Part shown: in pieces, positions 4,804 to 35,169 of the stretch | How the letters are laid out: every line of letters starts with the position of its first letter | Numbering within the stretch: position 1 is the stretch's first letter | Virus record (IMG/VR): IMGVR_UViG_3300024999_000110 | Coordinates: 1 to 60,243 of that record | Strand: one strand, 5' to 3' | Length of the DNA stretch: 60,243 bases | Origin: a virus | Taxonomy: Duplodnaviria; Caudoviricetes | Notes under the pieces: model-generated | What the model saw: only the letters and a program-made list of their open reading frames with translations | Told to the model about the DNA's origin: nothing | Databases searched by the model: none | Program-made: the position numbers and the translations under genes

Positions 4804-4819
4804 CGTTCACTTATGAACG
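4804..4819. promoter_or_regulatory. 16-bp palindromic site (GTTCA-N4-TGAAC), copy 1
   Basis: CGTTCACTTATGAACG just past the MCP stop codon. Confidence 0.6.
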
Positions 4820-4824
4820 GTCAA

Positions 4825-5748
4825 TTATGCAGCACCCGGACTTCCAAAAATTCCCCTTGGATCAGACCAACCAAAGCTTCCACGAAAAGTCGCTTTGAAC
4901 TTTGCATTCTCAGTATCGAAGTCATTCTCAGTTCCAAACGCATCAGGCCTCCTTTCCATATACTTCAAACCGTCTGGACAGTTAGTTTTAATAAACCATG
5001 CATCACTATCAGTCAGGTAATGATTCACAGCGATGCCCTGAGGAAACTTCTTCGATGCTCGAATAGCATTGATATCATTATTCGCGCTGCCGGACTGTCC
5101 GATAGATTCGAGAATCCGCATAGCGTCAAACTCAAGAGCAGTCGGGATGATCAACTTCTGAGGCATAATCGCGATCTTGAGTCCACGATCAGTAGTGAAT
5201 GCAGCGATGTCAATGCAAGCCTGCTCGAGGGCTGCTTCACTGAGGTCAGCCGCAGTAGAGAGCTCGTTCCTCCAGATACCGCCGGATTTATTCGGATGAT
5301 CAGTAGCACAAAGCTCCTTACCATCACTATTAGTTCCCATAGTATAAGCAGCAGTAAACGCCCGATTAAGGATGTTTGCCCCAATAATCTCTTTGGTTTG
5401 CCGGATAGAAAAAGCAAGTGCATTTGCACGACGCAGCGCAACTGTAACAGCTATACCATCTTCGTACATTTCCCGAGTAATAATAAATCCAAGGCCGTAC
5501 GTTACATGAGTGTAGCGACTAACAAATCCCTGCTCCTGCTCATCATACGCAATCCCAGCTCCCTCGGTTTTTACTGCTGCAAGACCGAAACCAGTTACGC
5601 CAGCTTCTTCTTCGAAAGCCTTTGTAGAGTTACCCTTTTCAAAAATATCCAAATACTCAATCGGATACTCTTTATATTTCTGCCCGAACCAAGTCTTGAC
5701 CCCAGGCACCAGATCTTTTGCAAAATTACTAGTAGTAATAATACCCAT
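4825..5748 (-). CDS. Major capsid protein (HK97 fold)
   Basis: 307 aa, downstream of portal and scaffold; motifs EGAGIAYD, DGKELCATDHP, P.KLIIP, HYLTDSDAWF and C-terminal R.SFGWSDPRG typical of phage MCPs. Confidence 0.85.
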   Translation of the reverse strand: MGIITTSNFAKDLVPGVKTWFGQKYKEYPIEYLDIFEKGNSTKAFEEEAGVTGFGLAAVKTEGAGIAYDEQEQGFVSRYTHVTYGLGFIITREMYEDGIAVTVALRRANALAFSIRQTKEIIGANILNRAFTAAYTMGTNSDGKELCATDHPNKSGGIWRNELSTAADLSEAALEQACIDIAAFTTDRGLKIAIMPQKLIIPTALEFDAMRILESIGQSGSANNDINAIRASKKFPQGIAVNHYLTDSDAWFIKTNCPDGLKYMERRPDAFGTENDFDTENAKFKATFRGSFGWSDPRGIFGSPGAA

Positions 5749-5800
5749 TTGTAAGCTCCTTTAAATGATGATTAAATAGCAGAAGTTAATAAACAACTAA

Positions 5801-6397
5801 TTAAACATCAGTTGAAATAGTAAGGCCCAGCTCATGCTCTCCGAAAAGAATTTCCCACTTGGCATAATTTCCAAGTTCATTATCTTCTCGATTAGCCAAC
5901 CTCAAAAGTCTACAGTTACCACTGGTGTCGGTTGCAGTATCACTGGAATCAAGTTCCATAGCAGACTTACCAGTAGTCGTAGATCCAGAACCAACTATAA
6001 AGTTTGTAGAAAGCCCTACTTCAGTAGCAGCCAATGCAGCACCATCACTATCTTCCTGAACTTCAAAAATAACCTGAGGATCATCAACTACCAGACAATA
6101 CATTGCAGTAGCAGCAGGCCGATATGAACGATTAGGAGTATCAGGATGAGTCATTACATACGGATTATCACCAAAAGCAATTACAACACCTCTCACTGCA
6201 GCACCAGCAGTAGCTTGGGCTACCGTAGGATACTTGCCGGTTGAATCTGCAGATCCAGCACTTTTAACTGCATCGCCAATAAAAGTTGCAGTATTATCAG
6301 TAGACGGAATGTAATAAACATTTGCCTGACCGTTCCAAGGAGACCCGTTCAAATGTTTGACCGGCTTAAAGCCGAAAGGAGTATCAAGATTTGCCAT
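5801..6397 (-). CDS. Capsid-associated (cement/decoration) protein
   Basis: MANLDTPFGFKPV start and V.DDP...FEVQ motif; lies immediately upstream of the MCP. Confidence 0.55.
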   Translation of the reverse strand: MANLDTPFGFKPVKHLNGSPWNGQANVYYIPSTDNTATFIGDAVKSAGSADSTGKYPTVAQATAGAAVRGVVIAFGDNPYVMTHPDTPNRSYRPAATAMYCLVVDDPQVIFEVQEDSDGAALAATEVGLSTNFIVGSGSTTTGKSAMELDSSDTATDTSGNCRLLRLANREDNELGNYAKWEILFGEHELGLTISTDV

Positions 6398-6424
6398 ATT
6401 TTTTACCTCAACAAAGTTTAATTA

Positions 6425-6838
6425 TTACGAAATAGTCACACTTCCAGACAAGCCATCTCTACCCTCGCCACGAGAGTTCCGCTTAATTTGGTTTTCTACC
6501 TCACTAATCTTGGCTTGTGATTCGGCTCGGTCTGCCTCATAAATCTCTTCTGGAATCTCCATTAGAACAGCCCTTTGATTGTTACCCACACTAGGGTTGG
6601 TGGCACTACCAATATTAGTCGGTCTGCCAATCTTTGAATCCCCAACAGGTGAACCATCATCAACAGTGTTCCATCCAGCGTCTTTAAACATCTGAAGGCG
6701 ATCTCCAGTATCATTAACAAATCGGCGCACGAAACCGACCTTCTTCGGTGCAGTCAAGATATTCCTCGACCCTAAAGGTATTCTCTTACGCGGTTGCTCG
6801 CTTTTAATACTCTCTGTATTTTTTGCCTGTTCTGTCAT
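6425..6838 (-). CDS. Hypothetical head-module protein
   Basis: 137 aa between the scaffold and capsid genes; AGAGGA RBS. Confidence 0.6.
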   Translation of the reverse strand: MTEQAKNTESIKSEQPRKRIPLGSRNILTAPKKVGFVRRFVNDTGDRLQMFKDAGWNTVDDGSPVGDSKIGRPTNIGSATNPSVGNNQRAVLMEIPEEIYEADRAESQAKISEVENQIKRNSRGEGRDGLSGSVTIS

Positions 6839-6853
6839 AACATAATCCTCTTA

Positions 6854-7810
6854 TTATTCTTGCATACTTGCAATATCTTTAATGTATTGTTCTTCGGTCA
6901 TTATGCCTCCGCGAACAAATTGATTCATTATACTAATTTGGTCAGGTGTAAGATCAGCTTTGCTGAAAGAATTCGTAGCACCTTTATTGTTTGATCCTTT
7001 ATCAACAGGAGAAACAGGTCCGATTGGCTTAACAGTCCCAGTAGTAGCAGGTGCTGCTGAAGTAGTTTTAGGAGCAAACTTTTCTGGAAAAACCTCCTGA
7101 ACTTTCTGTCGTACTAATGCATAAATCCTCGGCAGTGGTGCTCCAACATAATTCTGCGCTACACTATCAGCGAACTGTGCCATTTCATTGTCTTCCAAGT
7201 ACCATTGATTATCCTGAATCCAATCATCATAGACAGGATTTTCAACAGCACCAGCATCAGACTTGTTAGCACTTATTTTGGGGGCAGCAAGATCATTTTT
7301 CTTTGCTTCGATCTGTGCGTCCAGTTCTTCTACTTTATCAACATCAGCAAGTTCAATTGCAGACTTACGTTCCTTTTTAAGAGTTTCTATTTCAGCAGTT
7401 AGTTTCTTAACTTCAGTCTGATAGACTTTCTCATTGTGCTCTTTAAGTGCATTTACAGATGCCTGAACAGCACTAAGATTCTCCTTTAAGTCTTTATTAT
7501 GCTTACTCATTGCCTTCTGAATGTCTTTCGACCTCAGAATGTACGTGACCGCATCAACTGCATCTTCACCTACATGATCAGCACGCCAGCCAAGTTGTGA
7601 AGCAAGTTCTTCTACAGAAGGAGCAATCTTGGTTTGATCAGAATCAGCATTACCATCAGTGGTTTTAGTTTGATTGGAAGATTGATCATCACCAGATTTA
7701 GCTACCACAACAGACTTGCTGATATCACCAGTTGTTTCTGTTGCTTCTGTAGAAGAACCATCAGTTGCTTCGGCTGCCATAATAATGTCTTGCACAAATT
7801 CTTCTGCCAT
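6854..7810 (-). CDS. Putative capsid scaffolding protein
   Basis: Acidic disordered N-terminus, central coiled coil, W...N.WY motif; lies between portal and MCP. Confidence 0.6.
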   Translation of the reverse strand: MAEEFVQDIIMAAEATDGSSTEATETTGDISKSVVVAKSGDDQSSNQTKTTDGNADSDQTKIAPSVEELASQLGWRADHVGEDAVDAVTYILRSKDIQKAMSKHNKDLKENLSAVQASVNALKEHNEKVYQTEVKKLTAEIETLKKERKSAIELADVDKVEELDAQIEAKKNDLAAPKISANKSDAGAVENPVYDDWIQDNQWYLEDNEMAQFADSVAQNYVGAPLPRIYALVRQKVQEVFPEKFAPKTTSAAPATTGTVKPIGPVSPVDKGSNNKGATNSFSKADLTPDQISIMNQFVRGGIMTEEQYIKDIASMQE

Positions 7811-7822
7811 AATAACACCTAT

Positions 7823-8158
7823 TTAAAAGAGTAATCGAGCTAAAACATCATTGTCATTAATCAATACATAAGAGTCGTCATCTTTGCCAGGCATTGATAC
7901 GCCGGCATATCGAGAGTAACTAATCTTATCGCCAACTTCTGCCCAGGCAACTCCGTCATCAAGGTCTTTCCAGGCAGTAGGTCCGATGGCAATCAAGGTT
8001 CCTACTGTAGCGGCTTGCTGTTCTTTTTCCCGAATTGTTTCAGGCAAATAGATTCCGCCCTTAGTCTTTTCTTCAACCTTCTCAGGAAGTACTAACAAGT
8101 GTCCGCCAGTCGGTAAGATGCCAGATTGATTAATATCCATAATGTGTTCGTCGCTCAT
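7823..8158 (-). CDS. groES: GroES/Cpn10-like co-chaperonin
   Basis: LPTGGHLLVLP..EEKTKGGIYLP mobile loop; G.LIAIGP; VGDKI.YSRYAG; LINDNDVLA. Confidence 0.9.
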   Translation of the reverse strand: MSDEHIMDINQSGILPTGGHLLVLPEKVEEKTKGGIYLPETIREKEQQAATVGTLIAIGPTAWKDLDDGVAWAEVGDKISYSRYAGVSMPGKDDDSYVLINDNDVLARLLF

Positions 8159-8205
8159 AATTATTACCCTTTTAAATAATTGTTATTCTCAACAAATGTG
8201 TATGC

Positions 8206-8460
8206 TTAGTAACCACTACGCTCGTCAACGTCATTCTCTACAGAATCACCTTCAAAGGAAATATTCAATATTTGATCAAGCCCTTCAATATTTCCAACAA
8301 TCCTATTTGTCATGCCATGAGTCTCATATGCATTTTTGCCAATAGTATTTCCATTACTTAACTTATTTTCCATAACCTTACGAACTTTTCTAAGTTCTGT
8401 AAGAATCTCTGTTGTGACTGCATTAGTTTTCCATTCTTGGAATTGTTCACTAGTTAGCAT
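8206..8460 (-). CDS. Hypothetical protein
   Basis: 84-aa ORF with GAGGA RBS; F.EWK...VT pattern, post-portal position. Confidence 0.65.
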   Translation of the reverse strand: MLTSEQFQEWKTNAVTTEILTELRKVRKVMENKLSNGNTIGKNAYETHGMTNRIVGNIEGLDQILNISFEGDSVENDVDERSGY

Positions 8461-8470
8461 CGTAATGTCC

Positions 8471-8638
8471 TCAATTCTGATTAGCTTTCTCCAATTCTTT
8501 CTTCCTCTTAGTTGCAGCAGTTGTTACATTTCCAGCATAAAAAACATTCTTGTCTGAAGCATCATTCTTATTTTTACCCAAACCAAGTGCACGTAAAAAA
8601 GAAAACGTACCTTTCTTCTTCTTGTCTAATTCATCCAT
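8471..8638 (-). CDS. Small basic hypothetical protein (55 aa)
   Basis: Not in the ORF track; AGGAG RBS; MDELDKKKKGTFSFLRALGLGKNK...; exactly fills the gap after the portal. Confidence 0.6.
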   Translation of the reverse strand: MDELDKKKKGTFSFLRALGLGKNKNDASDKNVFYAGNVTTAATKRKKELEKANQN

Positions 8639-8647
8639 ATTGTCTCC

Positions 8648-10858
8648 TTAACTATATTCACGTTCAATCGTACTTTCTTTTAATCCACCAGGTGCTTTGC
8701 CAAGACTTTGCTGAGATCGTCCAAGCTCAAGCTGTCCAGAGATTTGCTTATCTTTAAGAGCTAAATCTATAACCTCATTGTCCATATCTGCAATTGTCTT
8801 CTCTTGCTCGAGTTGCGCTTTTGGAATATTTTCTATAATTTGCTGTGTTTCTGCATTTAATTTAGCGACCTTCGCCTGAAGTTCTGCAAGCTCAGCTTGG
8901 AGTTTCTGCATAGCGAGTTGTTCAGCTGGATCAGGCTGGTCTTCTGCAGGAAAGAATCTCTCAACATCTTCGATATCAAGTGCAAGTAAATACTGTCGCA
9001 AGATTTCCTGGTCATTCAATCCTTGACCCCGCAACTCTAGCATGGCTTTAGCCTTGAGCAACCGCTGCATCATTGTGGTGCTGTTCGGATCACTAACTGG
9101 CACAACATCAAAGTCTGCACTAGAGAAGTCTGCCTGAACAATTGCATTACTATCATCGAGAACAGCCTTATAAGTCATCTGATCTAGATAAAGAGCATTC
9201 AGCCTCCGTAACTTTATGAACTCTTTATACTGGCTACGATAAAGTCTCTTATGGATGGCACTGTAGACTTGTAAGCCTTGTTCAATCAATGCAAGAACAG
9301 ATTCAGCCGGAACATTCGCGCCTGGAGAATTACCAGCAAGAATCTCTGTCATGCCGGCAAGTTCTTTGCCACTCTCGATTAGCAGTCCGAGCAATTGGAA
9401 AAGAACATTACTTGGCTCACGTACTGGCATTGGGAAGATGTTCTTGCGAAGATCGTCGCCCGTTGCATCAACTGGCTTCCACTCTCCGGACTTAACCTGA
9501 ATGGATTTGCCTCTACCCAGTTTAAGGCCTCTTCCCAGAAAACCGCTTTGTCGATTTGATAAAGTACCCGCATCCAGCAACTGATTAATAACTGTGTTTA
9601 TGGCTGAGTTACTGCTCATCAAAAGTGAGCCAAACCCCATGCCATAAAAGCCACCATCAATCGCAGGCATGAAAATAAAGCGAGTAAAATACTGTTCAGG
9701 AATTATTTTAACAATCGGTCCGTCTGGATCAGTTATTCCGCTTTCATCAGACTTGCGAATAATTCCATCCGTGGCAAACCGAGGAGAAATCCTTACTAAC
9801 TTCTGTGATTGTTCATGAACAGTTACTACATAAGGCTCTTGATAACCATCCCCATCCAGGTCATACCACCGATGTTGCTCAAGGAACAAATGTGGAGTAT
9901 CTTCATCTACATCGGCAGTCTTATCGCTAGTTGCTTGACCAAGCTCGGCTACATCAAACTTGATAAAGATTCCAGAATTAATTCGCTCAACAATTTCATT
10001 ATGATACAAATAGATTCTATGTGTAACTCGTGGAGCCCGTTCCAGTGATTCAGCAAAATAATTTACAACCAAATCATCAGCAAAGACTATCTGAGATACG
10101 GACTTCCGCTCAATTGAATCGAAGTAACTCTTTTTGAACACACAACCGATTGCTGGCAACGTAAAAAGTAGCTGATCAACTCCTTCTTCCCAGTCTTCCA
10201 TTAGCGATAGAAGCTGGAAAGACATAAACTGAGAAATGCGGTTGGCTTTGTCGAACTTACGGTTGTCTGGATCAGTCCCTATTACCTTGCCTTTGACAAC
10301 CTCGTTACCTTTGATCAGTTCAGGATATGCTCTAGCAGCAAACTGGATACAAGCATTAATTATTAATGGATACTTAACATTGGCAACAACTTCGCCTGCG
10401 TAGACTTTCTTCTTTACGAGCAACTTAGCAAGATCGATGATCTGCACATTGAGTGCTTCCCATTCAGTGCGGCTAGCTAGATCAAGCTTATATCCCTCAA
10501 GTACTTTGGTTGTAATATCTGCTAAGGTTTCCTTATTTTGTTTGTCTGCCAAGTTTGTGATAAGTACAACTGCTTCAGCTCGGAGAGCTTCTTTTTCAAC
10601 AAGAGCAGTTGTAATAGGATCAACTTGAACGGGAGCAATTATATCTTCAATTGGTTCTTCAGTTGCCCAAAAGGGAACTTGGCCACTTAGGCTGGCTTGT
10701 TCAGTGTCTGGCAAGTTTGTGCCCGTATTCAAGGTTGAGTTGGTTCGTGTAGGCAGCTTCGCTGCTTGGCCAGCTATAATTGCATTAGCCATCGGAGTCG
10801 CTGGATTGCCTGGATCAACAAGTTCCTCTACAGGAAATTCAAAACCATTATTAGCCAT
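8648..10858 (-). CDS. Portal protein (long, P22-like architecture)
   Basis: 736 aa directly after TerL; GC.FKK.YFD, FYGMGFG..L, INQLLDAGTLSN motifs; C-terminal coiled-coil region. Confidence 0.85.
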   Translation of the reverse strand: MANNGFEFPVEELVDPGNPATPMANAIIAGQAAKLPTRTNSTLNTGTNLPDTEQASLSGQVPFWATEEPIEDIIAPVQVDPITTALVEKEALRAEAVVLITNLADKQNKETLADITTKVLEGYKLDLASRTEWEALNVQIIDLAKLLVKKKVYAGEVVANVKYPLIINACIQFAARAYPELIKGNEVVKGKVIGTDPDNRKFDKANRISQFMSFQLLSLMEDWEEGVDQLLFTLPAIGCVFKKSYFDSIERKSVSQIVFADDLVVNYFAESLERAPRVTHRIYLYHNEIVERINSGIFIKFDVAELGQATSDKTADVDEDTPHLFLEQHRWYDLDGDGYQEPYVVTVHEQSQKLVRISPRFATDGIIRKSDESGITDPDGPIVKIIPEQYFTRFIFMPAIDGGFYGMGFGSLLMSSNSAINTVINQLLDAGTLSNRQSGFLGRGLKLGRGKSIQVKSGEWKPVDATGDDLRKNIFPMPVREPSNVLFQLLGLLIESGKELAGMTEILAGNSPGANVPAESVLALIEQGLQVYSAIHKRLYRSQYKEFIKLRRLNALYLDQMTYKAVLDDSNAIVQADFSSADFDVVPVSDPNSTTMMQRLLKAKAMLELRGQGLNDQEILRQYLLALDIEDVERFFPAEDQPDPAEQLAMQKLQAELAELQAKVAKLNAETQQIIENIPKAQLEQEKTIADMDNEVIDLALKDKQISGQLELGRSQQSLGKAPGGLKESTIEREYS

Positions 10859-10985
10859 TAGCTCTTTCCTGAAGATTAAGTTGTATGCTTATTATATAGT
10901 AATAGCAAGTAGCGTGAAGATACAGGTAGAGTGAATATACGTGTAGGCGACTTCGTCGCTTGCAACACTTTACCTACTTAAGTTA

Positions 10986-12455
10986 TTAATAACCTGTAAC
11001 TAGACTTGTATCTTGCTGGTTGTATATTTCTGATGCCTCATAAGCCTGAAACTCCCAATAGGGCTTGGCGATTGCTCGCTTAAGTCCAGACATAATCAAG
11101 TACCTGGTGCAGTCCATAAGATGGTCCTTGTCTTTAACAATCTGACCGTTCTCATCCCGTCGATAAATACGAAACTCACTAAACCAATTAACCAGCGAAC
11201 CAAATACTTTTAGTCTGTTAGTACTCAGCATTTGCCACACAGCATACAGGCCAGCTTCAACAGATTTGTTGGCATTCTCAAGGTCAAGACCTAAACCTAG
11301 GTATTGTTCAAAAAGTTGCTTTCCGTCATCTTGACTGCGGCCATGTGCAGCTGAATCAACCACACCAGGAATCCATGTTCCACGAGCCTTAATGGCATCT
11401 GCATGGATCAGTGGCAACTGTTGTCCCTGGTAATATTCAGAATACAGATAAGTTATGTTACTAGTCGGATCTGTGGCTGCCCAAACAGTGGCAGTCTTCT
11501 TCCAGCCAACATCCAACGCATAACAGCGAAGCCAATGATCGGGAATAGCAAAATCAGCGACAGTGATATTAGATTCGAGGATTGGATAAATTGCACCAGC
11601 CCCAAGTTGTGGAACACCCTTCGACCTAGCGTCTCGTTGGTGAGGTGGAAGGGCTGCCCAGAGTTTATCTTTCTGTTCTTTGGTGAGGTGTGGAGCATCA
11701 TCCCATGTCGCCTGGATTAGGAATTTGCTACCTTCTTGATTATCCTCAATCTTTCCATTCGGCATAAACTGAAGAACAGTGTCAGTTAAGCCTTCAAGAG
11801 GAGTGAATGTAAGCATAATCAAACCATTTGTCGTCATGGTCCGAGTTATACATTCAGTATAGATTGGCAATGGACATTCTTCGTCCAGCCAGATCAGGTC
11901 TTGCTCAGTTCCTTCAAAAGACTTGCGCCCTTCAGCATAAGACTTGATCTTAATACGAGATATGCCACCAGAAATATGCTTGACCAAGATCATGTCGATG
12001 GCATTAGCTACTCCGCCGGCTTTCGGACTAGTTTTGATTATATATTTTTCGGGGATAAGGCCAGTACCGTACTCTTCAGGATTGCCGATCAGCTTATACT
12101 GAACGATATCTCTGGCAGTTGTACTGGTCGTACCACATGCCCAAATAGAAACTGGTTTGGTAAATCTCTTGCCAGCCCACCAAGCAGGATATCTGCCGGT
12201 TGCATGAAGAGTTGTTTCGTATGCACCAATACCTTCGCTTTTGCCTATGCGATTTGCGGCCATGATGCAACGCTCAGAAAAGTCTGCTCCGGCTGCAAAA
12301 AATGCCATGTGCTTAGGATAGTTATTTCGACTCAGCTCGCCGTCATCTGGATAATATTGTGCAATCTTGTTTTGCTTGATCCGGATGTTTTTGGCTTGCA
12401 ATAGTTTGAGGTATTGCTCTTTGCGGTCTCTATCAAGGTGGGAAAGATCCATCAT
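10986..12455 (-). CDS. terL: Terminase large subunit
   Basis: Walker A-like AANRIGKS, Walker B LIWLDEE, coupling motif TFTPLEG, nuclease ALDVGW and DHLMDCTRY. Confidence 0.95.
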   Translation of the reverse strand: MMDLSHLDRDRKEQYLKLLQAKNIRIKQNKIAQYYPDDGELSRNNYPKHMAFFAAGADFSERCIMAANRIGKSEGIGAYETTLHATGRYPAWWAGKRFTKPVSIWACGTTSTTARDIVQYKLIGNPEEYGTGLIPEKYIIKTSPKAGGVANAIDMILVKHISGGISRIKIKSYAEGRKSFEGTEQDLIWLDEECPLPIYTECITRTMTTNGLIMLTFTPLEGLTDTVLQFMPNGKIEDNQEGSKFLIQATWDDAPHLTKEQKDKLWAALPPHQRDARSKGVPQLGAGAIYPILESNITVADFAIPDHWLRCYALDVGWKKTATVWAATDPTSNITYLYSEYYQGQQLPLIHADAIKARGTWIPGVVDSAAHGRSQDDGKQLFEQYLGLGLDLENANKSVEAGLYAVWQMLSTNRLKVFGSLVNWFSEFRIYRRDENGQIVKDKDHLMDCTRYLIMSGLKRAIAKPYWEFQAYEASEIYNQQDTSLVTGY

Positions 12456-13141
12456 TATGACCTTTTAATATTGTGAAAGGGGTCAAATGATAAATCTTCT
12501 AAAATTGAAGTGTCTTCCATCAGAATGGGTTCTTCAAAATCTTCATCAGGAATAAAGAGTCCTTCTTGTTCTTCAGTACAGAATAAATCTTCCAGAGATA
12601 AATCATCCTCGTTAGCAGGCGTCGTGACAACAGCATGATCTGAGGTAAGAGGAATGGTCGTAAAGGATAGGTTTTGTCGTAAGGACTTTTTAATCTCTGG
12701 AAGATTTTTACCCCCTGTGCGATTGATAGCTTCTTCTATGGCTGCTATTTCAGCATCGAGTTCTTCGTCAGTTTTGGTTTGCAGCGTCATGTCAATGTTC
12801 AACCGATCGGGAGCCTTATATCCATTGCGATCGAGAACATCTTTGGCTGCATTAAATTGTACGGAGGCTGGTACAGCTTTGCGTGAACCAGAATTGAGAA
12901 GGTGCTCAAAGGTTGCAAGTGCTTCTTTGTTGAGGCTGACTAGCTTTTTGCGAACGTCCAAAGTTGCTTCGTGAGCCCTGTCTTGAAGGCCATTCAAGTA
13001 GGCTTGCCCTAACGGTGAACGCAGAATTGTCGATACAGAGGATTGTGCCATACCAAGACGCTCAGCGATCTCCTGATTTTTGTACCCGTTAAAGGCCATC
13101 TGGATAATGTTGCGGTGCTGGCTTTTCAGTTCTTTAAGCAT
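12455..13141 (-). CDS. terS: Putative terminase small subunit (N-terminal HTH, acidic tail)
   Basis: HTH GYKNQEIAERLGMAQSSVSTIL; AAKDVLDRNGYK motif; immediately upstream of terL. Confidence 0.7.
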   Translation of the reverse strand: MLKELKSQHRNIIQMAFNGYKNQEIAERLGMAQSSVSTILRSPLGQAYLNGLQDRAHEATLDVRKKLVSLNKEALATFEHLLNSGSRKAVPASVQFNAAKDVLDRNGYKAPDRLNIDMTLQTKTDEELDAEIAAIEEAINRTGGKNLPEIKKSLRQNLSFTTIPLTSDHAVVTTPANEDDLSLEDLFCTEEQEGLFIPDEDFEEPILMEDTSILEDLSFDPFHNIKRS

Positions 13142-13422: not shown

Positions 13423-13438
13423 TGTTCATAAGTGAACA
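13423..13438. promoter_or_regulatory. 16-bp palindromic site, copy 2
   Basis: TGTTCATAAGTGAACA in the divergent early/late intergenic region; its core is the reverse complement of copy 1. Confidence 0.6.
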
Positions 13439-13769
13439 CGGTATGTATATGTACCAATTGACGGCAATGAGAAGTTGCTTGTTTCCGCAACTCTATATAG
13501 AAACCCTAATCCACTACAGTAGGATCGAGGCATCCACATACAGGCAGGTTACACACAATAATAATTGTTCCCGCGACATACGTCGCAACCACACAAGAGA
13601 TGCACCAGGCAAGCAGATAAATCCTGGCAAACTGTGGAACATTTCAACAGATAGAATATTTTAATATGATGGGCCTGGCAACCTTGACAGCCTTCAAGCA
13701 AGTTACACTAGGCTATATTGCAAATGACCAGACAAGTTGTACCAAGCAGACTGGGGGGCAAAATAACTC

Positions 13770-13798
13770 TTGACAACCTGGACATGATGGGCTATTGT
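13770..13798 (+). promoter_or_regulatory. Sigma70-type early promoter
   Basis: TTGACA-N17-TATTGT, preceded by AAAATAACTC. Confidence 0.7.
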
Positions 13799-13849
13799 AA
13801 TTGGGAAAGGACAATTAATTAGAAAATGAAACAAGGTGGAAAATAACTC

Positions 13850-13878
13850 TTGACAATCCTTTCCACAGTTGATATACA
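13850..13878 (+). promoter_or_regulatory. Second tandem sigma70-type promoter
   Basis: TTGACA-N17-TATACA; AAAATAACTCTTGACAA repeats exactly 80 bp after the first copy. Confidence 0.6.
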
Positions 13879-14838: not shown

Positions 14839-14950
14839 ATTGCTAATGCCTAACAGACTGTAAAATTGCCTAACAGACTGTATTGAATGACTAGTGATTA
14901 GATGGTGGTTGTATGGTCGTTCGATGGTCGTTCGATGGTGAACAAGAATA

Positions 14951-15130
14951 ACGCGACCACACGTAACCACATGGTGCCACACGTAACCACACGTAACCAC
15001 ATGGACACAGAAAACAGGCACCAAGTGTAACCATATTGGCACCACAAGTAACCAAAAGGCACCGGATGGGCACACATAATTGGCACTACCTGGCACCACA
15101 TTGGCATTGCTTGGCACCATATGGGCACAG
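14951..15130 (+). repeat. Helically phased 10-11-bp repeat array (left), core G(G/T)(C/A)ACC
   Basis: ACGTAACCAC at 14961, 14981, 14991; GGCAC/GTAAC cores (GGCAT at 15103) at 15017, 15027, 15038, 15048, 15058, 15069, 15082, 15092, 15103, 15113, 15124. Confidence 0.85.
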
Positions 15131-15152
15131 AAGCTCTAGAAAAAGGTAATCA

Positions 15153-15165
15153 TTTCAAAGAGTTA
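15153..15165 (+). promoter_or_regulatory. IHF-like site (one mismatch)
   Basis: TTTCAAAGAGTTA versus consensus WATCAANNNNTTR. Confidence 0.35.
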
Positions 15166-15203
15166 CAAACCTGTGTGTCCAAACGTGGTCAATAGTGTCC
15201 AAC

Positions 15204-15303
15204 CGTACACCACCCCCTGTGTCGTGAGTGGGAGAGGGGGTCTGTTTTAGTATTTAATTTTTTTTTTAAATACTTAAATAGAATGGTCGGGGGGAGGTGT
15301 ACG
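15204..15303. other. Nested inverted repeat/cruciform with AT-rich core; candidate replication origin
   Basis: Outer arms CGTACACCACCCCC / GGGGGAGGTGTACG (one mismatch); inner AGTATTTAA-T8-TTAAATACT. Confidence 0.55.
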
Positions 15304-15353
15304 CACGGACTCTTTTGGCACCAACCGTACACAGCCCTAAAATTCCCCAACAA

Positions 15354-15366
15354 TATCAACCACTTA
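15354..15366 (+). promoter_or_regulatory. IHF consensus site
   Basis: TATCAACCACTTA matches WATCAANNNNTTR exactly. Confidence 0.45.
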
Positions 15367-15378
15367 CACAAGCATCCT

Positions 15379-15510
15379 GTCACCAACCGTCACCAAAACA
15401 TTACCACCAATCACCAAAAACGGCACCACCAGGCACCAAACCCTTGACAAATGGCACCAACCCGTGTTAAACCGTCACCAAACCGTCACCAAACCGTACC
15501 AACCGGACAC
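15379..15510 (+). repeat. Helically phased repeat array (right), core G(G/T)CACC
   Basis: Cores at 15379, 15389, 15422, 15432, 15453, 15474, 15485, with degenerate copies between; TTGACA at 15444 is embedded in the array. Confidence 0.8.
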
Positions 15511-15554
15511 AAAACGCCCGGTAACAACAAACCTCAACCAACGGAGCAACCATT

Positions 15555-17987: not shown

Positions 17988-18003
17988 TGTTCATCCTTGA
18001 ACA
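17988..18003. promoter_or_regulatory. 16-bp palindromic site, copy 3
   Basis: TGTTCATCCTTGAACA, intergenic. Confidence 0.55.
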
Positions 18004-19955: not shown

Positions 19956-19983
19956 CATCAGTCAATTAATAAAGGAACCAACT

Positions 19984-27029: not shown

Positions 27030-27260
27030 ATGAGCCATTATTCAAATGATTCAACAATGATTAAATTAGATCATTCTTCAGAATATGGAAAAGATTGTTT
27101 GAGATTTTTTTATAATGGATCTATTATTGCTGAGATAATTTGTTTTCAATGGATTCCTAAAATACAAGAACAAATTATTTTTGTTAATGATAAATATTTT
27201 GTAACAGAAGTTATTCATGATTATATAAACAAAACTTGTTCTTGCTATTTGTCAAAATAA
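27030..27260 (+). CDS. Hypothetical protein
   Basis: GAGGTG RBS before MSHYS; AT-rich. Confidence 0.6.
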   Translation: MSHYSNDSTMIKLDHSSEYGKDCLRFFYNGSIIAEIICFQWIPKIQEQIIFVNDKYFVTEVIHDYINKTCSCYLSK

Positions 27261-27430
27261 ATTAAAATTGCTGGAGGTGTAACTATGTTATTTCCAGGCA
27301 CTGCAAAAGGATTTTACATTACTATGGCAATTGCAGCAATTATTATTTTAGTGGTAGTATTTACTGATAATTATAATTGGTAGACCTCATGCACCCCCTT
27401 TTTTATTACTATCATTTAAAGGAGTTTTAA

Positions 27431-27982
27431 ATGAAAACATTTGAATTAGTTTACACAATCGAAGCAGGTTCATCCTGGAGAGGTAAAGAAGCTATTAAGA
27501 TTAAGAGCAATCTTGCTGATGACAAACTGGTAGATTGTGAACTTTCTCAAAGTCTTATTGATCATCTCAAAACAGAAGCTGCTGTTCTTGATCCAGATAA
27601 ACTTCTCCTAACTATTGCCGAGGCACAGAAACGAGAAATTCAAACTAGTATTGAAAACATGGACGACATGGCTGTTCTAGCAAAAGCTCATGCTGATAAA
27701 GCATATGAAATTCTCTCAACTATTTCTGAGGAAGCAGAGACTAAGTATGCAGAGATTGAAAAGAAATTTTCAGCTACAGAAAAGCGTTTCAAAGATAAGA
27801 TGCTTTCCACTTCTGAGAGTATCAAAACTCATATGGAAAAACTCTCTGCTGTTGATGAAAAACTTACAAAGATTGACAATTGGCAACTGGAAAAACTAAC
27901 TGAGACTTTGAAACAGTTAATTAAAATCATAGAGGTTGATCCTGAACTTGTTAAGCTGGTTTTGGATTATAAGAAGGCATAA
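27431..27982 (+). CDS. Coiled-coil protein flanked by a 22-bp direct repeat
   Basis: AAGGAG RBS; K/E-rich heptads. Confidence 0.75.
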   Translation: MKTFELVYTIEAGSSWRGKEAIKIKSNLADDKLVDCELSQSLIDHLKTEAAVLDPDKLLLTIAEAQKREIQTSIENMDDMAVLAKAHADKAYEILSTISEEAETKYAEIEKKFSATEKRFKDKMLSTSESIKTHMEKLSAVDEKLTKIDNWQLEKLTETLKQLIKIIEVDPELVKLVLDYKKA

Positions 27983-28006
27983 TTATTTTATTTAAAGGAG
28001 TTTTAA

Positions 28007-28813
28007 ATGAATCCACAAGTAGCTACAGTACCAAATTTCAACAAGACAAAGCTAACTGAAAAGCAACGAATCTTTAATCTTAAATTCCTCTTGACTGGTA
28101 ATTCAGGTTCTGGCAAAACTCACTTCACAGCAACCTACACCAAGGGACCGCTTCATTATTATATGTTTGATAAGGGAGGAGAAAAGACAATAGAGAAAAT
28201 AGCATCCAAAAGGAACGATATCACAATTGATAATTTCTCAGCTGACTCTTTGCTCTTCTCTGATTTTTGGCGGACATTCCAGGAGGATGAAAAAAATGGT
28301 CTGTTCCAGTGGCTGAAGGAACAGTCAGGCATGTTAGTTCTCGACTCTCTGACAAATGCTAACAAGAAAGCAATCCATGAAATTGAAAAGAAGTCTGGTA
28401 TTACTCCAAGCGGCATAGGTAAAAAGATCGACATGAAGATGGGCATGGCACCTGCTCATTGGGGCCAACTCTTGAATTGGATGAGCACTTTAGTTAGCTC
28501 ACTCCAGGAATTGCCTTGTGCAGTTGCAGTCACAGTCCATTTGCATACGCTTATGAATTCTGATCAAGAAGTAGTTGCAAGATATCCCGCAGTAAATGGG
28601 CAGTTCAGGCAGTTACTAGCTGCTGATTTTGACGAAGCCTACTTGCTGACGACACAAGGAACGAAACGACAAATCTTCTTTACTGAAAAACTTGCATTTG
28701 AAGCAAAGTCTCGTGTGTTTGATATGCCAAAAGTTGAAGGAATTTCAATGGATCAATTGGCAGCAGCCTATTTGGCAGGCAAAACAGTCATTCCACAATC
28801 CATCTCAGCTTAA
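28007..28813 (+). CDS. AAA_24/Sak4-like P-loop ATPase (recombination)
   Basis: GNSGSGKT, LVLDSLT, WG.L, V.VH; lies between the exonuclease and SSB-like gene. Confidence 0.75.
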   Translation: MNPQVATVPNFNKTKLTEKQRIFNLKFLLTGNSGSGKTHFTATYTKGPLHYYMFDKGGEKTIEKIASKRNDITIDNFSADSLLFSDFWRTFQEDEKNGLFQWLKEQSGMLVLDSLTNANKKAIHEIEKKSGITPSGIGKKIDMKMGMAPAHWGQLLNWMSTLVSSLQELPCAVAVTVHLHTLMNSDQEVVARYPAVNGQFRQLLAADFDEAYLLTTQGTKRQIFFTEKLAFEAKSRVFDMPKVEGISMDQLAAAYLAGKTVIPQSISA

Positions 28814-28830
28814 TTAAAGGAGTTTTAATT

Positions 28831-29274
28831 ATGGAAAAGCAAATCGTGGAAATTAATGGTGTGAAGTTTGAAGTTGATATGAGTAGCGCGAAGATTATTT
28901 CTGAATATAAAATCGGAGATAAAGTAAATGTTTTAATAAAAGAATATTCTGATAAAATTGTATGTCCAGGCATCATTGTAGGCTTTGATAATTTCAAAGA
29001 TTTACCAACTATCACTGTTGCATATCTTAAAATTGGCTACAACGAAGCAACGATTAAGTTTGTCTACTTTAATAGTGATTCAAAAGAAGTTGACATTGCT
29101 CCATGTCGTGAATCAGACCTTATTTTTAATAAAGGTGATATTATTACCAAAATGGATCGTGAAATTGCATCTAAAGAGAAAGAAGTAGAAGATTTGATTC
29201 GGAAGAAAAATTATTTCTTAAACAACTTTACAAAGCATTTCGAGGCTGCAATGGCAGTTAAGACTAACGAATAA
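28831..29274 (+). CDS. Hypothetical protein
   Basis: AAGGAG RBS; 147 aa. Confidence 0.75.
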   Translation: MEKQIVEINGVKFEVDMSSAKIISEYKIGDKVNVLIKEYSDKIVCPGIIVGFDNFKDLPTITVAYLKIGYNEATIKFVYFNSDSKEVDIAPCRESDLIFNKGDIITKMDREIASKEKEVEDLIRKKNYFLNNFTKHFEAAMAVKTNE

Positions 29275-29401
29275 AAAGGAGAATATAAAACACCAAAACT
29301 AAAACGAAAACTATCAATCAAACCAAACCTTACCAACTTTTGATCGAAGAATAGTTCTTTGGTCACGCATTACACTAAACTTATTTAAAGGAGATTTACT
29401 C

Positions 29402-29824
29402 ATGTCTATGATTCCTAATCTGTCCGAAATTCCTGACAAAGCACCTGTTGAAGCTGGCGAATATGACCTCACCATCTCTAAGGTCAAAGAGACCAAGTCT
29501 CAGCGCACTGGCAGGTATGGTTGTCAGCTGATTATTAATATCGACGGAGAAGATAACGCATCAACTATCTTTCACACTCTCTGGTATGGTAACTACAAAG
29601 ATTATCAGGGTGACGATGAAGAAAAGAATAACCTCATGTGGCGGATGGTAAAAGATTTTCTCCGTGCACTTGGACTTGATCCAGACCAGGAAACCGACGA
29701 ATCTGATCTGGTCGGCCTCAATTTTACGGCTGAACTCAGTTTTAATGATGGCATGTCGACAGATGATGATGGTAATCCGATCAAGGTTGGTCAGCCAAGG
29801 AATGAAATTGCTCGTGTAGTTTAA
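29402..29824 (+). CDS. Putative single-stranded DNA-binding protein (DUF669-like)
   Basis: PVEAGEY.LTI, FL.ALG, DLVG and terminal RNEI pattern; acidic; follows the Sak4-like ATPase. Confidence 0.65.
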   Translation: MSMIPNLSEIPDKAPVEAGEYDLTISKVKETKSQRTGRYGCQLIINIDGEDNASTIFHTLWYGNYKDYQGDDEEKNNLMWRMVKDFLRALGLDPDQETDESDLVGLNFTAELSFNDGMSTDDDGNPIKVGQPRNEIARVV

Positions 29825-29850
29825 TAACGGAGCTTTATGATCAAGTTTAA

Positions 29851-30195
29851 TTCGATATTAGAGTCTAGTTACCACTTTCAGTTAGCTAGGTCTGGCATTG
29901 CCGGAACAATGTCATTCTGAACGAGGCGTTGATGTGACGCCTACAAGATATCGGAATAAATAAAACTTGCTGTTCACTTATGAACGAACTGTTGAATGGT
30001 TCGCAAGTAAGTGAACAGCAACTTACAATTGAATGTATGAATCTAATAATCCACATAGATCTGGCCTATGGTTAGGATTATACCTAAAGTAGCATTTGTG
30101 TAATGCTATAGCTCGTAGTTACCAGACATAAGATACTGGACTCAGAGCTAAGAACATGAGAGGTATAATACCAATGCCTCTCATGTCTTGTTTTT
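29851..30195 (+). ncRNA. Candidate structured ncRNA region (contains palindrome copy 4 at 29971-29986)
   Basis: At least eight stems in sequence, including 14-bp TTGCTGTTCACTTA/TAAGTGAACAGCAA; no long ORF. Confidence 0.45.
30154..30195 (+). terminator. Intrinsic terminator
   Basis: ACATGAGAGG/CCTCTCATGT 10-bp stem followed by CTTGTTTTT. Confidence 0.65.
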
Positions 30196-30222
30196 ATTTA
30201 TCTTACTAAATAAATATTACTA

Positions 30223-30420
30223 ATGAAACTAATTAAAACATTAAATGATTGGTTATTAAAACGGAAGAGAAAGAATTGTAAGCATCAATGGGCTTCTTCA
30301 GATAATTTTCACAGAACCTGCTCTGTTTGCGGATTGAAACAGATTATTGTTTATTATCGATTCGGACCAATAAGGACAGAATGGATTCAAGATCCATGGC
30401 AACTTATTAATAAAGGTTGA
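30223..30420 (+). CDS. Small Cys/His zinc-ribbon-like protein
   Basis: CKHQW...CSVCG. Confidence 0.5.
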   Translation: MKLIKTLNDWLLKRKRKNCKHQWASSDNFHRTCSVCGLKQIIVYYRFGPIRTEWIQDPWQLINKG

Positions 30421-30497
30421 TATTATCTTTACTAAGAATTAATCTGCTAAAATATTAATGTTTAGCAAAGATAAATATCTCACAAAGGAGAATTATC

Positions 30498-30836
30498 ATG
30501 GGTGAGCAATCTGATTATGAAAAATATCGTGGTAAATGTAAAGAATTTTCAGAAGCTTTAATTAAAAAAGATCCAAGTCTTAGATTAGTTCGAGAACATT
30601 ACTATTGTCCAATATGGGGTGAGCAAGAACATTGGTGGTGTGAAGATAAGACTGGAAAGATAATAGATCCAACGAAAGATCAATTTCCATCAAAAGGAAG
30701 TGGAGAATATATAGAATTTGGTGGAATCTGTATTTGTGCTGAATGTAGTATTGCAGTTAAAGAAGAAGATGCTATATTTATGTCAAGGTATCCTGTTTGT
30801 TCAGATCGTTGTGCTAGAGCTTTAGTTGGACTATAA
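30498..30836 (+). CDS. Small transglutaminase/papain-like protein with C-terminal zinc finger
   Basis: GKC..FS, HWW, IIDPT..QF (Cys-His-Asp order), then CAEC...CSDRC. Confidence 0.5.
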   Translation: MGEQSDYEKYRGKCKEFSEALIKKDPSLRLVREHYYCPIWGEQEHWWCEDKTGKIIDPTKDQFPSKGSGEYIEFGGICICAECSIAVKEEDAIFMSRYPVCSDRCARALVGL

Positions 30837-33203: not shown

Positions 33204-33205
33204 CT

Positions 33206-33496
33206 ATGCCACTAATGGATCGTATTTACTGCCGATCATTCTTAGAAATGTCTTATCCTGAGCAAGCCAGACTAATTGAACGCGTTCGGACTATGCGAAC
33301 CTCTGCGCTGAACGCAGCACTTGTTAAGTCTCAAAAGATCACTAAGTCTGCTATGAAAAATATTTCTAAGAACTCTGGAACAAAGCGCGGCAAGAAGATG
33401 CTGGCGGATCCTACCAAGAATGCAACAGACTTGCTTGGTAAACTTTCAGCAGATCAAATAGAGTTAATAAAAAGGCAGTTTCAAAATTTAAACTGA
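33206..33496 (+). CDS. Basic hypothetical protein
   Basis: GAGGT RBS; 96 aa. Confidence 0.7.
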   Translation: MPLMDRIYCRSFLEMSYPEQARLIERVRTMRTSALNAALVKSQKITKSAMKNISKNSGTKRGKKMLADPTKNATDLLGKLSADQIELIKRQFQNLN

Positions 33497-33501
33497 GGCT
33501 T

Positions 33502-33705
33502 ATGATGATAGACAGAGAAATTGTAGTTACATTAAGTCAGGCTATTCAAATTGGTCCTGATGAATGGAAACAGCATAAGATAAGTAGAATATTTTCAAGT
33601 ACAAGAAGTCTTAGAGATATGCTTTCATGGGCTGAAGCAGAAGGATTAATTAATCCACAAATATCAGATTTACAATTTTCTGAATTTACAGGTAAGAGTA
33701 TATAA
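33502..33705 (+). CDS. Hypothetical protein
   Basis: GAGG RBS; 67 aa. Confidence 0.6.
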   Translation: MMIDREIVVTLSQAIQIGPDEWKQHKISRIFSSTRSLRDMLSWAEAEGLINPQISDLQFSEFTGKSI

Positions 33706-33738
33706 AAATTAATTAAAGATAAAGTTAAAGGTTAAATC

Positions 33739-35169
33739 ATGCAACTTTTTCAAATAGAAAAACGTAATATTTCCGACATTATTATCAAAGATCGTGCTCG
33801 CACAACAGTAGGTGACATATCAAGTTTAGCTGATTCAATCTCGATGGTTGGCCAGCTTCATGCGATCCTCATAGATTCAAACAACGTCTTAATTGACGGT
33901 TTGCATCGCATCGAAGCCTTTAAAAAGCTTGGTAGGGAAACAATTGAAGTCCGAGTATTCGACGGTATTACTGAAGACGATCATTTCTTGATCGAACTTC
34001 TTAGTAATATGGACCGTAAGGAATTTCTGTGGCATGAGGAAATTGATCTCAAGTATAAACTTCACAACTATTGGGTAGAATCAGCAATCAAGGAAGGCAA
34101 ATCTTGGGGCTACAGAGAAACAGCCAAGAGGCTCAAGTGCAGTCTTGGTGGCTTATCTACTGACCTTGCTTTCGCTGAGGCTCTTAAAGTCTTTCCAATC
34201 TTGAAAGAACAGTCTACTAAAGGCCGAGCTAAAGAAGCATACAAAGCTCTTGGTGAACAAGCTAAGGCACTTCAGCGAATGGGTAGCTTTACCGATACAG
34301 AAAAGGAACGCTTGGTTGCATTACAAAGCGGAGTTATGACGGCTCCTATAAAGAATACGGTAACTCAAAATGTATTTGAGAAAACCAAGCAAGCCAAGAA
34401 AAAACTTGATGATTTTGATGAAGATGATCAAGACCTTAACGATGAACAAGAACCAATCCGATCTAACATCCAAGTAATTTATGTAGCTGAAAACTACAAG
34501 ACTTTCCTCGATAAGATTCCAAGTAACTCTGTGGGAATGGTAGAACTTGATCCGCCATATGCAATTGATTTTAATGACAACTATGGTAAAACGAATAAGA
34601 TCGAATGCAAAGCACAAGACTGGGATGAGAAAGAGCTTTATGACTTCTACTTCAATTATCTTCCGTTAGTCTATGAGAAGATGCTTGACTGTAGTTGGGC
34701 TTTAGTCTGGACAGGTAAAGAACATTTTATACAAATCAACAATATTGCACGAGAAATCGGCTTTGGAGTTCAATCTCCTGGTTCATGGAACAAAGTTGGT
34801 GGCAGTACCAATAAGCCGAAGACAAACATGGTTAGCAATTGGGAAATGTTTTTGCTCCTGCGTAAGGGAAATGCACAGTTCAATACTCCTAGCTTGTCGT
34901 CTTCAATTAACATAAGTACAGTCAGTTCAAGTCAACGTATTCACCAATGGGAAAAACCGATTGAACTTTATGATCATTTCTTAAAAGCCTTAGGTAAACC
35001 TGGAACCTTATTTATGAGCCTCTTTGCTGGTTCTGGCAACTGCTTGATCAGCGCGGCCAAAGAAAAAATGATGCCAGTTGGTTGTGATAAGAGCCAGAAG
35101 TATATCCCGGAATTTTATCAGAGACTTGAGAATTATCTTGGAATAACTGCCGAAGTGGAGGGATTATGA
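33739..35169 (+). CDS. ParB-like domain + HTH fused to an N6-adenine/N4-cytosine DNA methyltransferase (beta-class motif order)
   Basis: LIDGLHRIEA and EL.SN..RK (ParB); WGYRETAKRLKCSLGGLS (HTH); LDPPY, H.WEKP.EL, LFAGSG (MTase). Confidence 0.88.
   Translation: MQLFQIEKRNISDIIIKDRARTTVGDISSLADSISMVGQLHAILIDSNNVLIDGLHRIEAFKKLGRETIEVRVFDGITEDDHFLIELLSNMDRKEFLWHEEIDLKYKLHNYWVESAIKEGKSWGYRETAKRLKCSLGGLSTDLAFAEALKVFPILKEQSTKGRAKEAYKALGEQAKALQRMGSFTDTEKERLVALQSGVMTAPIKNTVTQNVFEKTKQAKKKLDDFDEDDQDLNDEQEPIRSNIQVIYVAENYKTFLDKIPSNSVGMVELDPPYAIDFNDNYGKTNKIECKAQDWDEKELYDFYFNYLPLVYEKMLDCSWALVWTGKEHFIQINNIAREIGFGVQSPGSWNKVGGSTNKPKTNMVSNWEMFLLLRKGNAQFNTPSLSSSINISTVSSSQRIHQWEKPIELYDHFLKALGKPGTLFMSLFAGSGNCLISAAKEKMMPVGCDKSQKYIPEFYQRLENYLGITAEVEGL

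Follow-up and report, generated by a model that had tools for sequence, protein, structure and literature searches.

Palindromes scattered along a tailed-virus genome as probable docking sites for the virus's own ParB-helix-turn-helix-methyltransferase fusion

The virus record IMGVR_UViG_3300024999_000110 of IMG/VR (Duplodnaviria; Caudoviricetes), which was analysed over its full 60,243 bases and is here called the window, is linear, about 90% complete, and encodes a 476-aa protein in which a ParB N-terminal domain (N-domain) and a helix-turn-helix (HTH) are fused to a DNA methyltransferase. We propose, with moderate confidence and on comparative grounds, that the GTTCA-N4-TGAAC palindromes found along this genome are parS-like sites on double-stranded DNA at which the phage's own ParB-HTH-methyltransferase docks. 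The fusion is taken to be the reader because the site tracks the protein across three deeply diverged lineages, and because the site and the recognition helix of the HTH covary. An earlier reading of the same DNA from its letters alone (hereafter the sequence-only reading) had called the link between protein and palindromes unproven; the comparison now lends it strong support, the motif appearing to follow the protein into a near-unrelated lineage and to change with the HTH helix.

Palindromic sites in the window and in related viruses

When the whole window was scanned, YGTTCA-N4-TGAACR matched only at sites 1 to 4 of Table 1, against a mean of 0.02 and a maximum of 1 in 100 dinucleotide-preserving shuffles, none of which reached four copies. 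These four palindromes had been listed in the sequence-only reading, and their letters and coordinates proved correct in 4 of 4 cases. Its chance estimate of under 0.1 was right, all four sites are intergenic on the gene map (the open reading frame, ORF, that overlaps site 1 being a shadow frame), and three of them have the CTTA/TAAG spacer in common, as it had said. Because the spacer varies freely in relatives, this sharing reflects recent common descent and no constraint. A fifth copy of the core, absent from that list, lies inside the 2217-aa ORF and fails the Y...R rule, its right flank being a C.

Relatives of the window were viral contigs retrieved by the ParB-methyltransferase and by TerL, dozens each, which are labelled G0xx where a label is needed. 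GTTCA-N4-TGAAC is present in 4-7 copies in 17 of the 20 whole related records, with 0-1 copies of a reversed control pattern, and in 3-8 copies in 6 more records, which brings the relatives with the N4 form to 23 altogether; in these the arms of the palindrome are invariant and the 4-bp centre takes many values. Some positions recur: among six mapped genomes a site adjoins the 306-307-aa capsid-like gene in five, lies 3' of the 140-aa DUF669 gene in four (and also after its homologue in G021 and G022), and falls within the corresponding large structural ORF in all six, this ORF being split in two of them (849 + 907 aa pieces). The homologues of the 2217-aa ORF in relatives measure 2294-2623 aa and always hold one palindrome, at about residues 680-860.

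On a crude ORF map of 12 genomes, 50 of 80 sites were mostly intergenic, whereas 5-16% of each genome is intergenic sequence. The gaps between sites were also more regular than expected: in 12 of 12 genomes their coefficient of variation fell short of the null mean, and its sum of 5.68, against 9.86 for the null, was reached by 0 of 2000 random placements, a figure that overstates independence, since the genomes are kin and the sites prefer gene gaps. The strongest flank signal, TGAAC-A-n-CAAGT on one side of the palindrome, ran with the local gene direction at 29 sites and opposite to it at 30 (59 sites in all). Several sites end 17-25 nt 5' of start codons that have their own ribosome-binding site, and no fixed position or orientation of the sites relative to transcription units was found.

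In 5 of 8 mapped genomes without the N4 form, the gene for the ParB-methyltransferase itself contains a site, at two positions and in two lineages: in G021, G022 and G023 it falls in the linker of the fusion gene (about residues 233-238), and in G046 and G050 in the part coding for the N-domain (about residue 57). No site within the fusion gene was present in the nine N4 genomes. Since chance would place a site there in roughly a quarter of genomes, we take this location only as a hint that the fusion may be the reader.

Co-occurrence of site and protein and covariation with the recognition helix

The ParB-methyltransferase was present in 17 of 17 motif-bearing records among close relatives, a co-occurrence that is uninformative because nearly all genes are shared, and it is the distant carriers that are informative. 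Four of these (G021-G024) share with the window only the replication module and TerS, the small terminase, and hold 6, 8, 2 and 4 copies of GTTCA-N5-TGAAC and 9, 8, 10 and 5 copies of GTTC-N7-GAAC, respectively. A group of seven records of high G+C content (GC), G037 and G045-G050 at 51-57%, encodes a fusion about 24-33% identical to that of the window and displays 6, 5, 11, 5, 4, 7 and 9 copies of GTTC-N7-GAAC, respectively, against 0-1 for controls; in the three high-GC records tested the shuffle means were 0.46-0.64, with a maximum of 3. The palindrome consensus of this group is GTTCR-N5-YGAAC, and many of its sites lie inside ORFs (9 of 11, 6 of 9 and 5 of 6). At E<=1e-3, G046 and G050 have in common with the window only four proteins, namely a weak TerL, the ParB-methyltransferase, PolA and the primase, and G037 has three, the ParB-methyltransferase, PolA and the primase. 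The phages with GTTC arms range from 31 to 57% GC.

A different palindrome was found in G016, whose fusion is 31% identical to that of the window: GTTCA palindromes number 0, and GTAAT-N5-ATTAC occurs 7 times in tight gene gaps, a count that never exceeded 2 in 10 shuffles. No close relative of G016 was present in the viral collection, so that the GTAAT class consists of one genome. Although the fusions of the 13 aligned N4 and N5 genomes are 47-100% identical overall, every one of them has SLGGLSTDLA as its predicted recognition helix. The high-GC group has SIGGVSEDLS or ALGALSEDIQ at this place and G016 has SRNTIQKDVD, with the WGYR arginine lost as well.

Ten records without a match to the ParB N-domain/HTH, comprising G015 and G019 (by whole-protein search) and G035, G036, G038 and G040-G044 (by N-terminal profile), showed 0-6 copies of GTTC-N6/7-GAAC against 0-6 of the control pattern. 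A PolA-based search showed no relative above 42% PolA identity to be without the fusion, and one fragment, G039, has 9 GTTC sites in a record that ends inside PolA, so that its ParB-methyltransferase content cannot be read. The sequence-only reading had held that persistence of the motif in relatives lacking the ParB-methyltransferase would speak against the link. No such persistence was observed, the motif being met only in fusion holders or in fragments of the latter kind.

DNA site or RNA hairpin

A dimeric DNA-binding protein classically leaves conserved 5-bp arms, spaced by about one helical turn, on either side of a centre that is not read. The palindromes fit double-stranded DNA bound by a dimer rather than an RNA hairpin, because the arms are kept while the spacer varies freely, the flanks show no covariation, the hairpins are weak, the orientation is unfixed and the spacing is even. 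At the first flanking position, 36 of 119 non-redundant sites would form a pair, against 57 expected when right flanks were shuffled among sites, and a clear pairing excess was seen at one flank position only (50 vs 38). An extended hairpin was ruled out, given that the flanks pair less often than shuffled ones. The five hairpins of the window fold at -4.2 to -6.9 kcal/mol with stems of 5-6 bp, three of them better than shuffles (z -2.0 to -3.5) and two no better, and a search of Rfam at gathering thresholds returned 0 matches. Likewise, a promoter reading was rejected, as sigma-70-like scans stayed near the shuffle expectation and the spacing to start codons is unsuitable.

Site 4 is part of a larger structure. 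The left arm of the palindrome, together with the spacer, pairs in addition with a distal copy that lies 36-40 nt downstream, in a 15-bp stem (Table 1) that displays compensatory changes in 7 of the 15 predicted pairs among 15 sequences and is followed by a T-rich run in most relatives. In this alignment the stem looks like a terminator after the DUF669 gene in which the palindrome is embedded. A strong terminator with a 13-bp stem is found about 130 nt beyond it, at 30154-30196, and the 400-nt intergenic gap around site 4 could encode a small RNA.

The ParB-HTH-methyltransferase protein

The fusion holds DGLHR at residues 53-57, DPPY at 271-274 and FAGSG at 429-433. Pfam matched N6_N4_Mtase on it with an E of 2.8e-12, PHROG ParB-like families matched residues 1-111, and the family profile matched the N-domains of ParB, Noc and Spo0J (E 1e-10 to 1e-8, with 6e-10 to 7e-8 for the chains); PF02195 and PF01555 are precomputed on 117 of the 120 homologues listed, and a 22-sequence alignment of the family has invariant positions in the HTH. 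The N-terminal half was modelled separately because a fold search with the full-length protein gave methyltransferase matches only. The model of the N-terminal 205 residues (predicted local distance difference test, pLDDT, 82) has helices at 125-132 and 136-151, and its best PDB matches are pNOB8 ParB, the Noc-NBS complex, the ParB proteins of Myxococcus, Bacillus and Caulobacter, and KorB, in alignments of 211-225 columns that take in the HTH. Residues 98-157, a helical module in the prediction, superpose on the N-terminal domain and HTH of solved ParB, Noc and KorB. According to this model, the N-terminal half is a ParB N-domain followed by a DNA-binding module. For the C-terminal half, fold matches to CcrM, RsrI, MboIIA and M1.HpyAVI (E 1e-13 to 1e-11) and the motif order both agree with a beta-class N6-adenine or N4-cytosine DNA methyltransferase (PF01555). 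The family and predicted-fold matches thus bear out the ParB N-terminal domain, HTH and DPPY/FAGSG methyltransferase that the sequence-only reading had assigned to this ORF.

The C-terminal dimerisation domain of ParB is not present, and the methyltransferase stands in its place. A symmetric homodimer formed through methyltransferase residues 327-391 was predicted with a score of 0.56, against 0.00 for the best of three controls; of proteins solved as pairs, 20 of 30 attained this mark, and of those solved as single chains 1 of 23, and the runs agreed in at least 83% of contacts, with a partner pLDDT of at least 68. If so assembled, the methyltransferase dimer would supply the dimerisation normally given by the missing ParB C-domain. 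No ParA-type match was found among the 58 window ORFs scanned with Pfam (the ORFs at 50287-60226 stood outside that scan), and no second ParB-HTH paralogue was found in the window or in any fetched genome. A scan of one genome per species, covering 185,579 species, met the fusion family at 1 locus, on a phage-like contig of a metagenome-assembled genome.

In canonical ParB the two glutamates of the nucleotide boxes serve the hydrolysis of cytidine triphosphate (CTP), and the last arginine of box II is needed for nucleotide binding. The window has DGLHR for GERR in box II and SNMDR for ENxxR in box III, box II keeping only its last arginine and box III only its N..R, and the window clade as a whole has D-G-(L/A/F)-(H/R)-R and (S/A)-N-x-D-R. 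GERR and ENxxR are intact in more distant family members, in the N5 clade, in G016 and in G037, the G046 group has GAKR in box II, and the change of the spacer from 5 to 4 bp coincides with the decay of the boxes. The sequence-only reading had invoked a sliding clamp dependent on CTP; this model is doubtful here because both acidic residues of boxes II and III are replaced, and it finds no support for the window (GERR to DGLHR, ENxxR to SNxxR).

Genomic context

The gene map of the window comprises three blocks, on the minus, plus and minus strand in turn (Table 1). The plus-strand block encodes a UvrD-like helicase, a PD-(D/E)XK nuclease, AAA_24, DUF669, an NAD ligase, the ParB-methyltransferase, UDG-PolA, the primase-helicase, an exonuclease and ThyX. 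A megablast search with 20 kb of the window found 0 close DNA relatives among isolated phages, and a tRNA scan of the window found no tRNA gene. A search of sequencing runs listed 15 with matching DNA, all in the form of contigs, and none with RNA.

Table 1. Features of the 60,243-base window, with positions counted from its first base
Feature	Position	Strand	Remarks
Site 1, CGTTCA-CTTA-TGAACG	4804..4819		between capsid-like gene 4825-5748 (-) and gene 3737-4687 (-)
Site 2, TGTTCA-TAAG-TGAACA	13423..13438		divergent region between TerS (12455-13141, -) and the first plus-strand genes
Site 3, TGTTCA-TCCT-TGAACA	17988..18003		43 nt 5' of ORF 18045-18233 (+)
Site 4, TGTTCA-CTTA-TGAACG	29971..29986		3' of DUF669 gene; in 5' arm and loop of a larger hairpin
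Fifth core copy, GTTCA-TTAG-TGAAC	48039..48052		inside 2217-aa ORF 43609-50262 (-)
Covarying 15-bp stem around site 4	29967..30021	+	29967-29981 pairs with 30007-30021
ParB N-domain, HTH and beta-class DNA methyltransferase fusion, 476 aa, P0001	33739..35169	+	family and fold matches
Predicted HTH of the fusion, residues about 120-157	34096..34209	+	recognition helix carries SLGGLSTDLAFA
Methyltransferase domain of the fusion, residues about 245-470	34471..35148	+	DPPY before FAGSG
Minus-strand structural block	1-13141	-	TerS, TerL, portal and capsid-like genes
Capsid-like gene, 307 aa	4825-5748	-	Pfam Phage_capsid_4
Portal gene	8648-10858	-	Pfam/PHROG scans
TerL	10986-12455	-	Pfam/PHROG scans
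TerS (small terminase)	12455-13141	-	PHROG
Early and replication block	13443-43541	+	family matches
Ribbon-helix-helix-like paralogues	15555-16130, 19367-19648, 19933-20241	+ block	common N-terminal strand-helix-helix pattern xxFRLxxxQLAxxL
DUF669 gene, 140 aa	29402-29824	+ block	Pfam
Primase-helicase	38964-40235	+ block	DUF3987; PHROG DNA primase
Second minus-strand block	43609-60226	-	includes 2217-aa ORF
2217-aa ORF, structural block	43609-50262	-	0 Pfam / PHROG matches

Two ORFs, 4813-5754 (plus strand, 313 aa) and 4825-5748 (minus strand, 307 aa), are open opposite each other over about 940 nt; the plus-strand one is a shadow frame of the capsid-like gene, and its ATG falls within site 1. 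Immediately 3' of the ParB-methyltransferase stop codon, at 35180-35236, a 24-nt unit is repeated 2.4 times. The region 14840-15520 is repeat-dense and apparently non-coding, with a strong AT skew of 0.23; its several short units, some in tandem and some interspersed, measure 10-21 nt (ACCACACGTA, AAACCGTCACC, TGGCACCA-type). It could represent a replication origin of the iteron type or else another protein array. A 22-nt element ending in CTCTTGACAA has copies at 13755-13776 and 13835-13856, 80 nt apart, which are candidate tandem early promoters of the sigma-70 type. The G+C fraction is 0.47-0.50 in parts of 1-4000 and 54000-58000 (the structural arms), compared with 0.34-0.40 elsewhere.

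Two observations concern relatives. The PolA of G029 (27191-30727) has 1178 aa, with two blocks that match the PolA of the window and about 300 extra residues between them, which suggests an intein or other insertion. In G023 a 17-nt palindrome (GATCAAGGACTTTGATC) recurs with about 45 identical flanking bases at 66, 46811 and 46873, near the ends of the record, and is probably a terminal or tandem repeat.

Discussion

In order to decide which molecule reads the palindromes, the other candidates have to be compared with the fusion. The sites might be operators or stoperator-like roadblocks, likeliest for one of the ribbon-helix-helix-like (RHH-like) paralogues, that time the early, replication and late blocks. 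This explanation, which the sequence-only reading had offered as its own alternative, would account for the preference for gene gaps and for the A-rich AACTTG flank, resembling a -35 region, that many sites display. The RHH-like family is found in 9 of 9 N4 genomes and in G021, G022 and G023 by an iterated profile search, and 4 of 9 N4 genomes have a site 21-164 nt 5' of an RHH-like gene; autoregulated repressors often bind just upstream of their own gene. Nevertheless, we consider operators unlikely, and the alternative has weakened, given that the family is absent from two lineages with the same or an analogous palindrome: it was not found in G016 and G037 down to E<=10, and the RHH-like proteins of the window were without a match in G046 and G050 at E<=1e-3. 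Moreover, many high-GC sites are inside ORFs and the N4 clade keeps one inside a giant structural gene, a distance of 17-25 nt to a start codon leaves no room for a promoter, the flank signal has no fixed orientation (29 vs 30), and the DNA-reading segments of the RHH-like proteins vary. The RHH fold is itself a weak lead, for Pfam and PHROGs gave nothing and the RHH families of a protein atlas reached 0.87-0.88 with the 93-aa protein. The small terminase, with the sites as packaging signals, is a still poorer candidate, and so is a host protein; we judge this pair of possibilities very improbable. TerS has an N-terminal HTH resembling sigma-70 region 4, and in most N4 genomes a site is inside or at most 500 bp 5' of its gene, being inside it in 4 of 9. 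Its recognition helix, however, varies among phages with an invariant motif, a homologue was not found in G046, G050 or G037, and a pac site is normally single, whereas a host factor fails to explain the switch to GTAAT in G016 or the same arms across 31-57% GC.

The primase-helicase might be the recognition partner, with the palindromes serving as multiple points of replication initiation or helicase loading, since it is common to every motif-bearing lineage. In the alignment, the last 80 residues of the protein resemble a winged helix, the sites are evenly spread and tolerate coding positions, and site 4 stands at the head of the replication module; the phage P4 primase-helicase binds short repeats that have a similar TGTTCA core. 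We hold it improbable all the same, as G046 and G037 have the arms of the window without conserving its putative winged helix, in contrast to the conserved HTH helix of the ParB part. In addition, G036 has a primase without GTTC enrichment, and origins usually occupy one or two clustered loci, not 5-11 single palindromes. There is only a slight chance that the palindromes act as RNA hairpins in processing, stability, translational control or antitermination. Sites do occur near gene starts, three of five fold better than shuffles, and at site 4 the small hairpin competes with the covarying 15-bp terminator-like stem in what resembles an antiterminator geometry. The stems are nevertheless short and weak, their flanks do not covary and Rfam is silent; an invariant stem with an unconserved loop is the reverse of the usual target of an RNA-binding protein, both orientations occur, also inside genes, and the distal partner exists at one syntenic site only.

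Several observations weigh against the fusion as reader of the sites, among them the proximity to RHH-like genes, the sites inside TerS genes and the universal primase-helicase just mentioned. Within a lineage the records are kin, so that the 34 positive ones amount to about three independent lineages, the singleton G016 and a handful of negative lineages. Dispersed palindromes of their own are found in three of the genomes without the ParB N-domain/HTH, whose PolA is about 27% identical to that of the window: TAACA-N1-2-TGTTA in 12 copies in G036 and 5 in G035, and TTACA-N2-TGTAA in 4 copies in G038, many of them inside ORFs. Such lattices can accordingly have other readers. At its thresholds Pfam reports no PF02195 on the window fusion and no HTH_ParB in residues 95-205. 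The success of the dimer prediction may reflect likeness to solved dimers, beta-class methyltransferases having been solved in that form, and the residues present in the boxes make a canonical CTPase cycle in the window clade unlikely. Finally, at least the copy at site 4 has an RNA-level context in addition, namely the covarying terminator-like hairpin.

Docking of the fusion on the palindromes remains for us the probable explanation. The comparison establishes the sites and their conservation, the domain composition of the protein, and the joint occurrence and joint change of site and HTH helix; from these we infer binding, the geometry of the dimer, methylation in cis and any effect on transcription. 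The fusion would dimerise through its methyltransferase domain and present two ParB-type HTH modules, each to one GTTCA arm, about one helical turn apart, the central 4 bp being left unread. The five sites, placed more evenly round the 60-kb genome than chance would have it, would then hold the enzyme on phage DNA, and phage DNA might be methylated in preference to that of the host; this selective methylation of the phage genome is pure inference. In sister clades with GERR and ENxxR, loading at the sites may be followed by sliding of the protein as a clamp gated by nucleoside triphosphate (NTP), and in the window clade, with its degenerate boxes, static docking or a switch based on NTP binding only would be more likely. 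A broader scheme can be offered tentatively, and we would not call it probable: an even lattice of phage-specific palindromes might serve self-labelling in several lineages, by recruiting a ParB reader with a methyltransferase as cargo, under a simple, evolvable helix-site code in which xS(T/E)D(L/I) stands for GTTC and IQKDV for GTAAT. The enzyme of clades with intact boxes would load, slide under NTP gating and methylate in cis, and the window clade would have decayed to static docking as its spacer went from 5 to 4 bp.

The proposed system resembles several known ones in part. Like ParB-parS and Noc-NBS, it would combine a 16-bp palindrome in several copies per replicon with the HTH of a dimeric ParB. 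In contrast to those systems, the window is without the C-terminal ParB dimerisation domain and without ParA in the ORFs scanned, has DGLHR in place of GERR, and spreads its sites genome-wide rather than clustering them near an origin. In cluster A mycobacteriophages the immunity repressor reads stoperators, which lack symmetry and follow the direction of transcription. Stoperators share with the window-type sites the many copies of one short sequence in short intergenic gaps, whereas the latter are palindromic, unfixed in orientation and, in the high-GC lineage, often inside genes. KorB, some of the best fold matches for the N-terminal half of the window fusion being structures of this protein, acts at OB operators, some of which lie far from promoters or inside genes. 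In the portions of PMC12704722 available to us, KorB of the IncP plasmid RK2 is likewise a ParB-family protein with N-domain and HTH that uses copies of one short palindrome spread across a replicon of some 60 kb, but it acts as a CTP-gated clamp and repressor, has a C-terminal dimerisation domain of its own and carries no enzyme. The window fusion differs from it in the C-terminal methyltransferase, in the unread centre of its site and in its degenerate nucleotide boxes.

According to the accessible text of PMC12704722, fusions of the ParB-CTPase fold to N6_N4 methyltransferases are frequent in phages, rank among the commonest ParB-domain architectures and are enriched in prophage regions; the window fusion has this same domain architecture. 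What was available of PMC12783734 states the function of ParBc in methyltransferase fusions to be unknown, and no DNA target for such fusions is named in the literature found, including these parts of both sources. A phage ParB homologue that activates thymine dioxygenase is described in the accessible portion of PMC13229309 and serves a DNA-modifying enzyme, as the ParB part of the window protein would. It is, however, a separate activator with no evident DNA-binding domain, in which mutations of NTP residues are without effect, whereas the ParB part of the window protein is fused to its enzyme and has kept the HTH.

With the present proposal a common and unexplained class of phage enzymes gains a candidate DNA target. 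With a concrete site, natural variants of its arms and its spacing, and three or four residues as candidates for specificity, the question can be tested directly by means of oligonucleotides and the 205-residue fragment. If methylation is indeed targeted in cis, a virus would here distinguish its own DNA from that of its host in a new manner, and the system would be a natural example of a DNA-modifying enzyme addressed by sequence.

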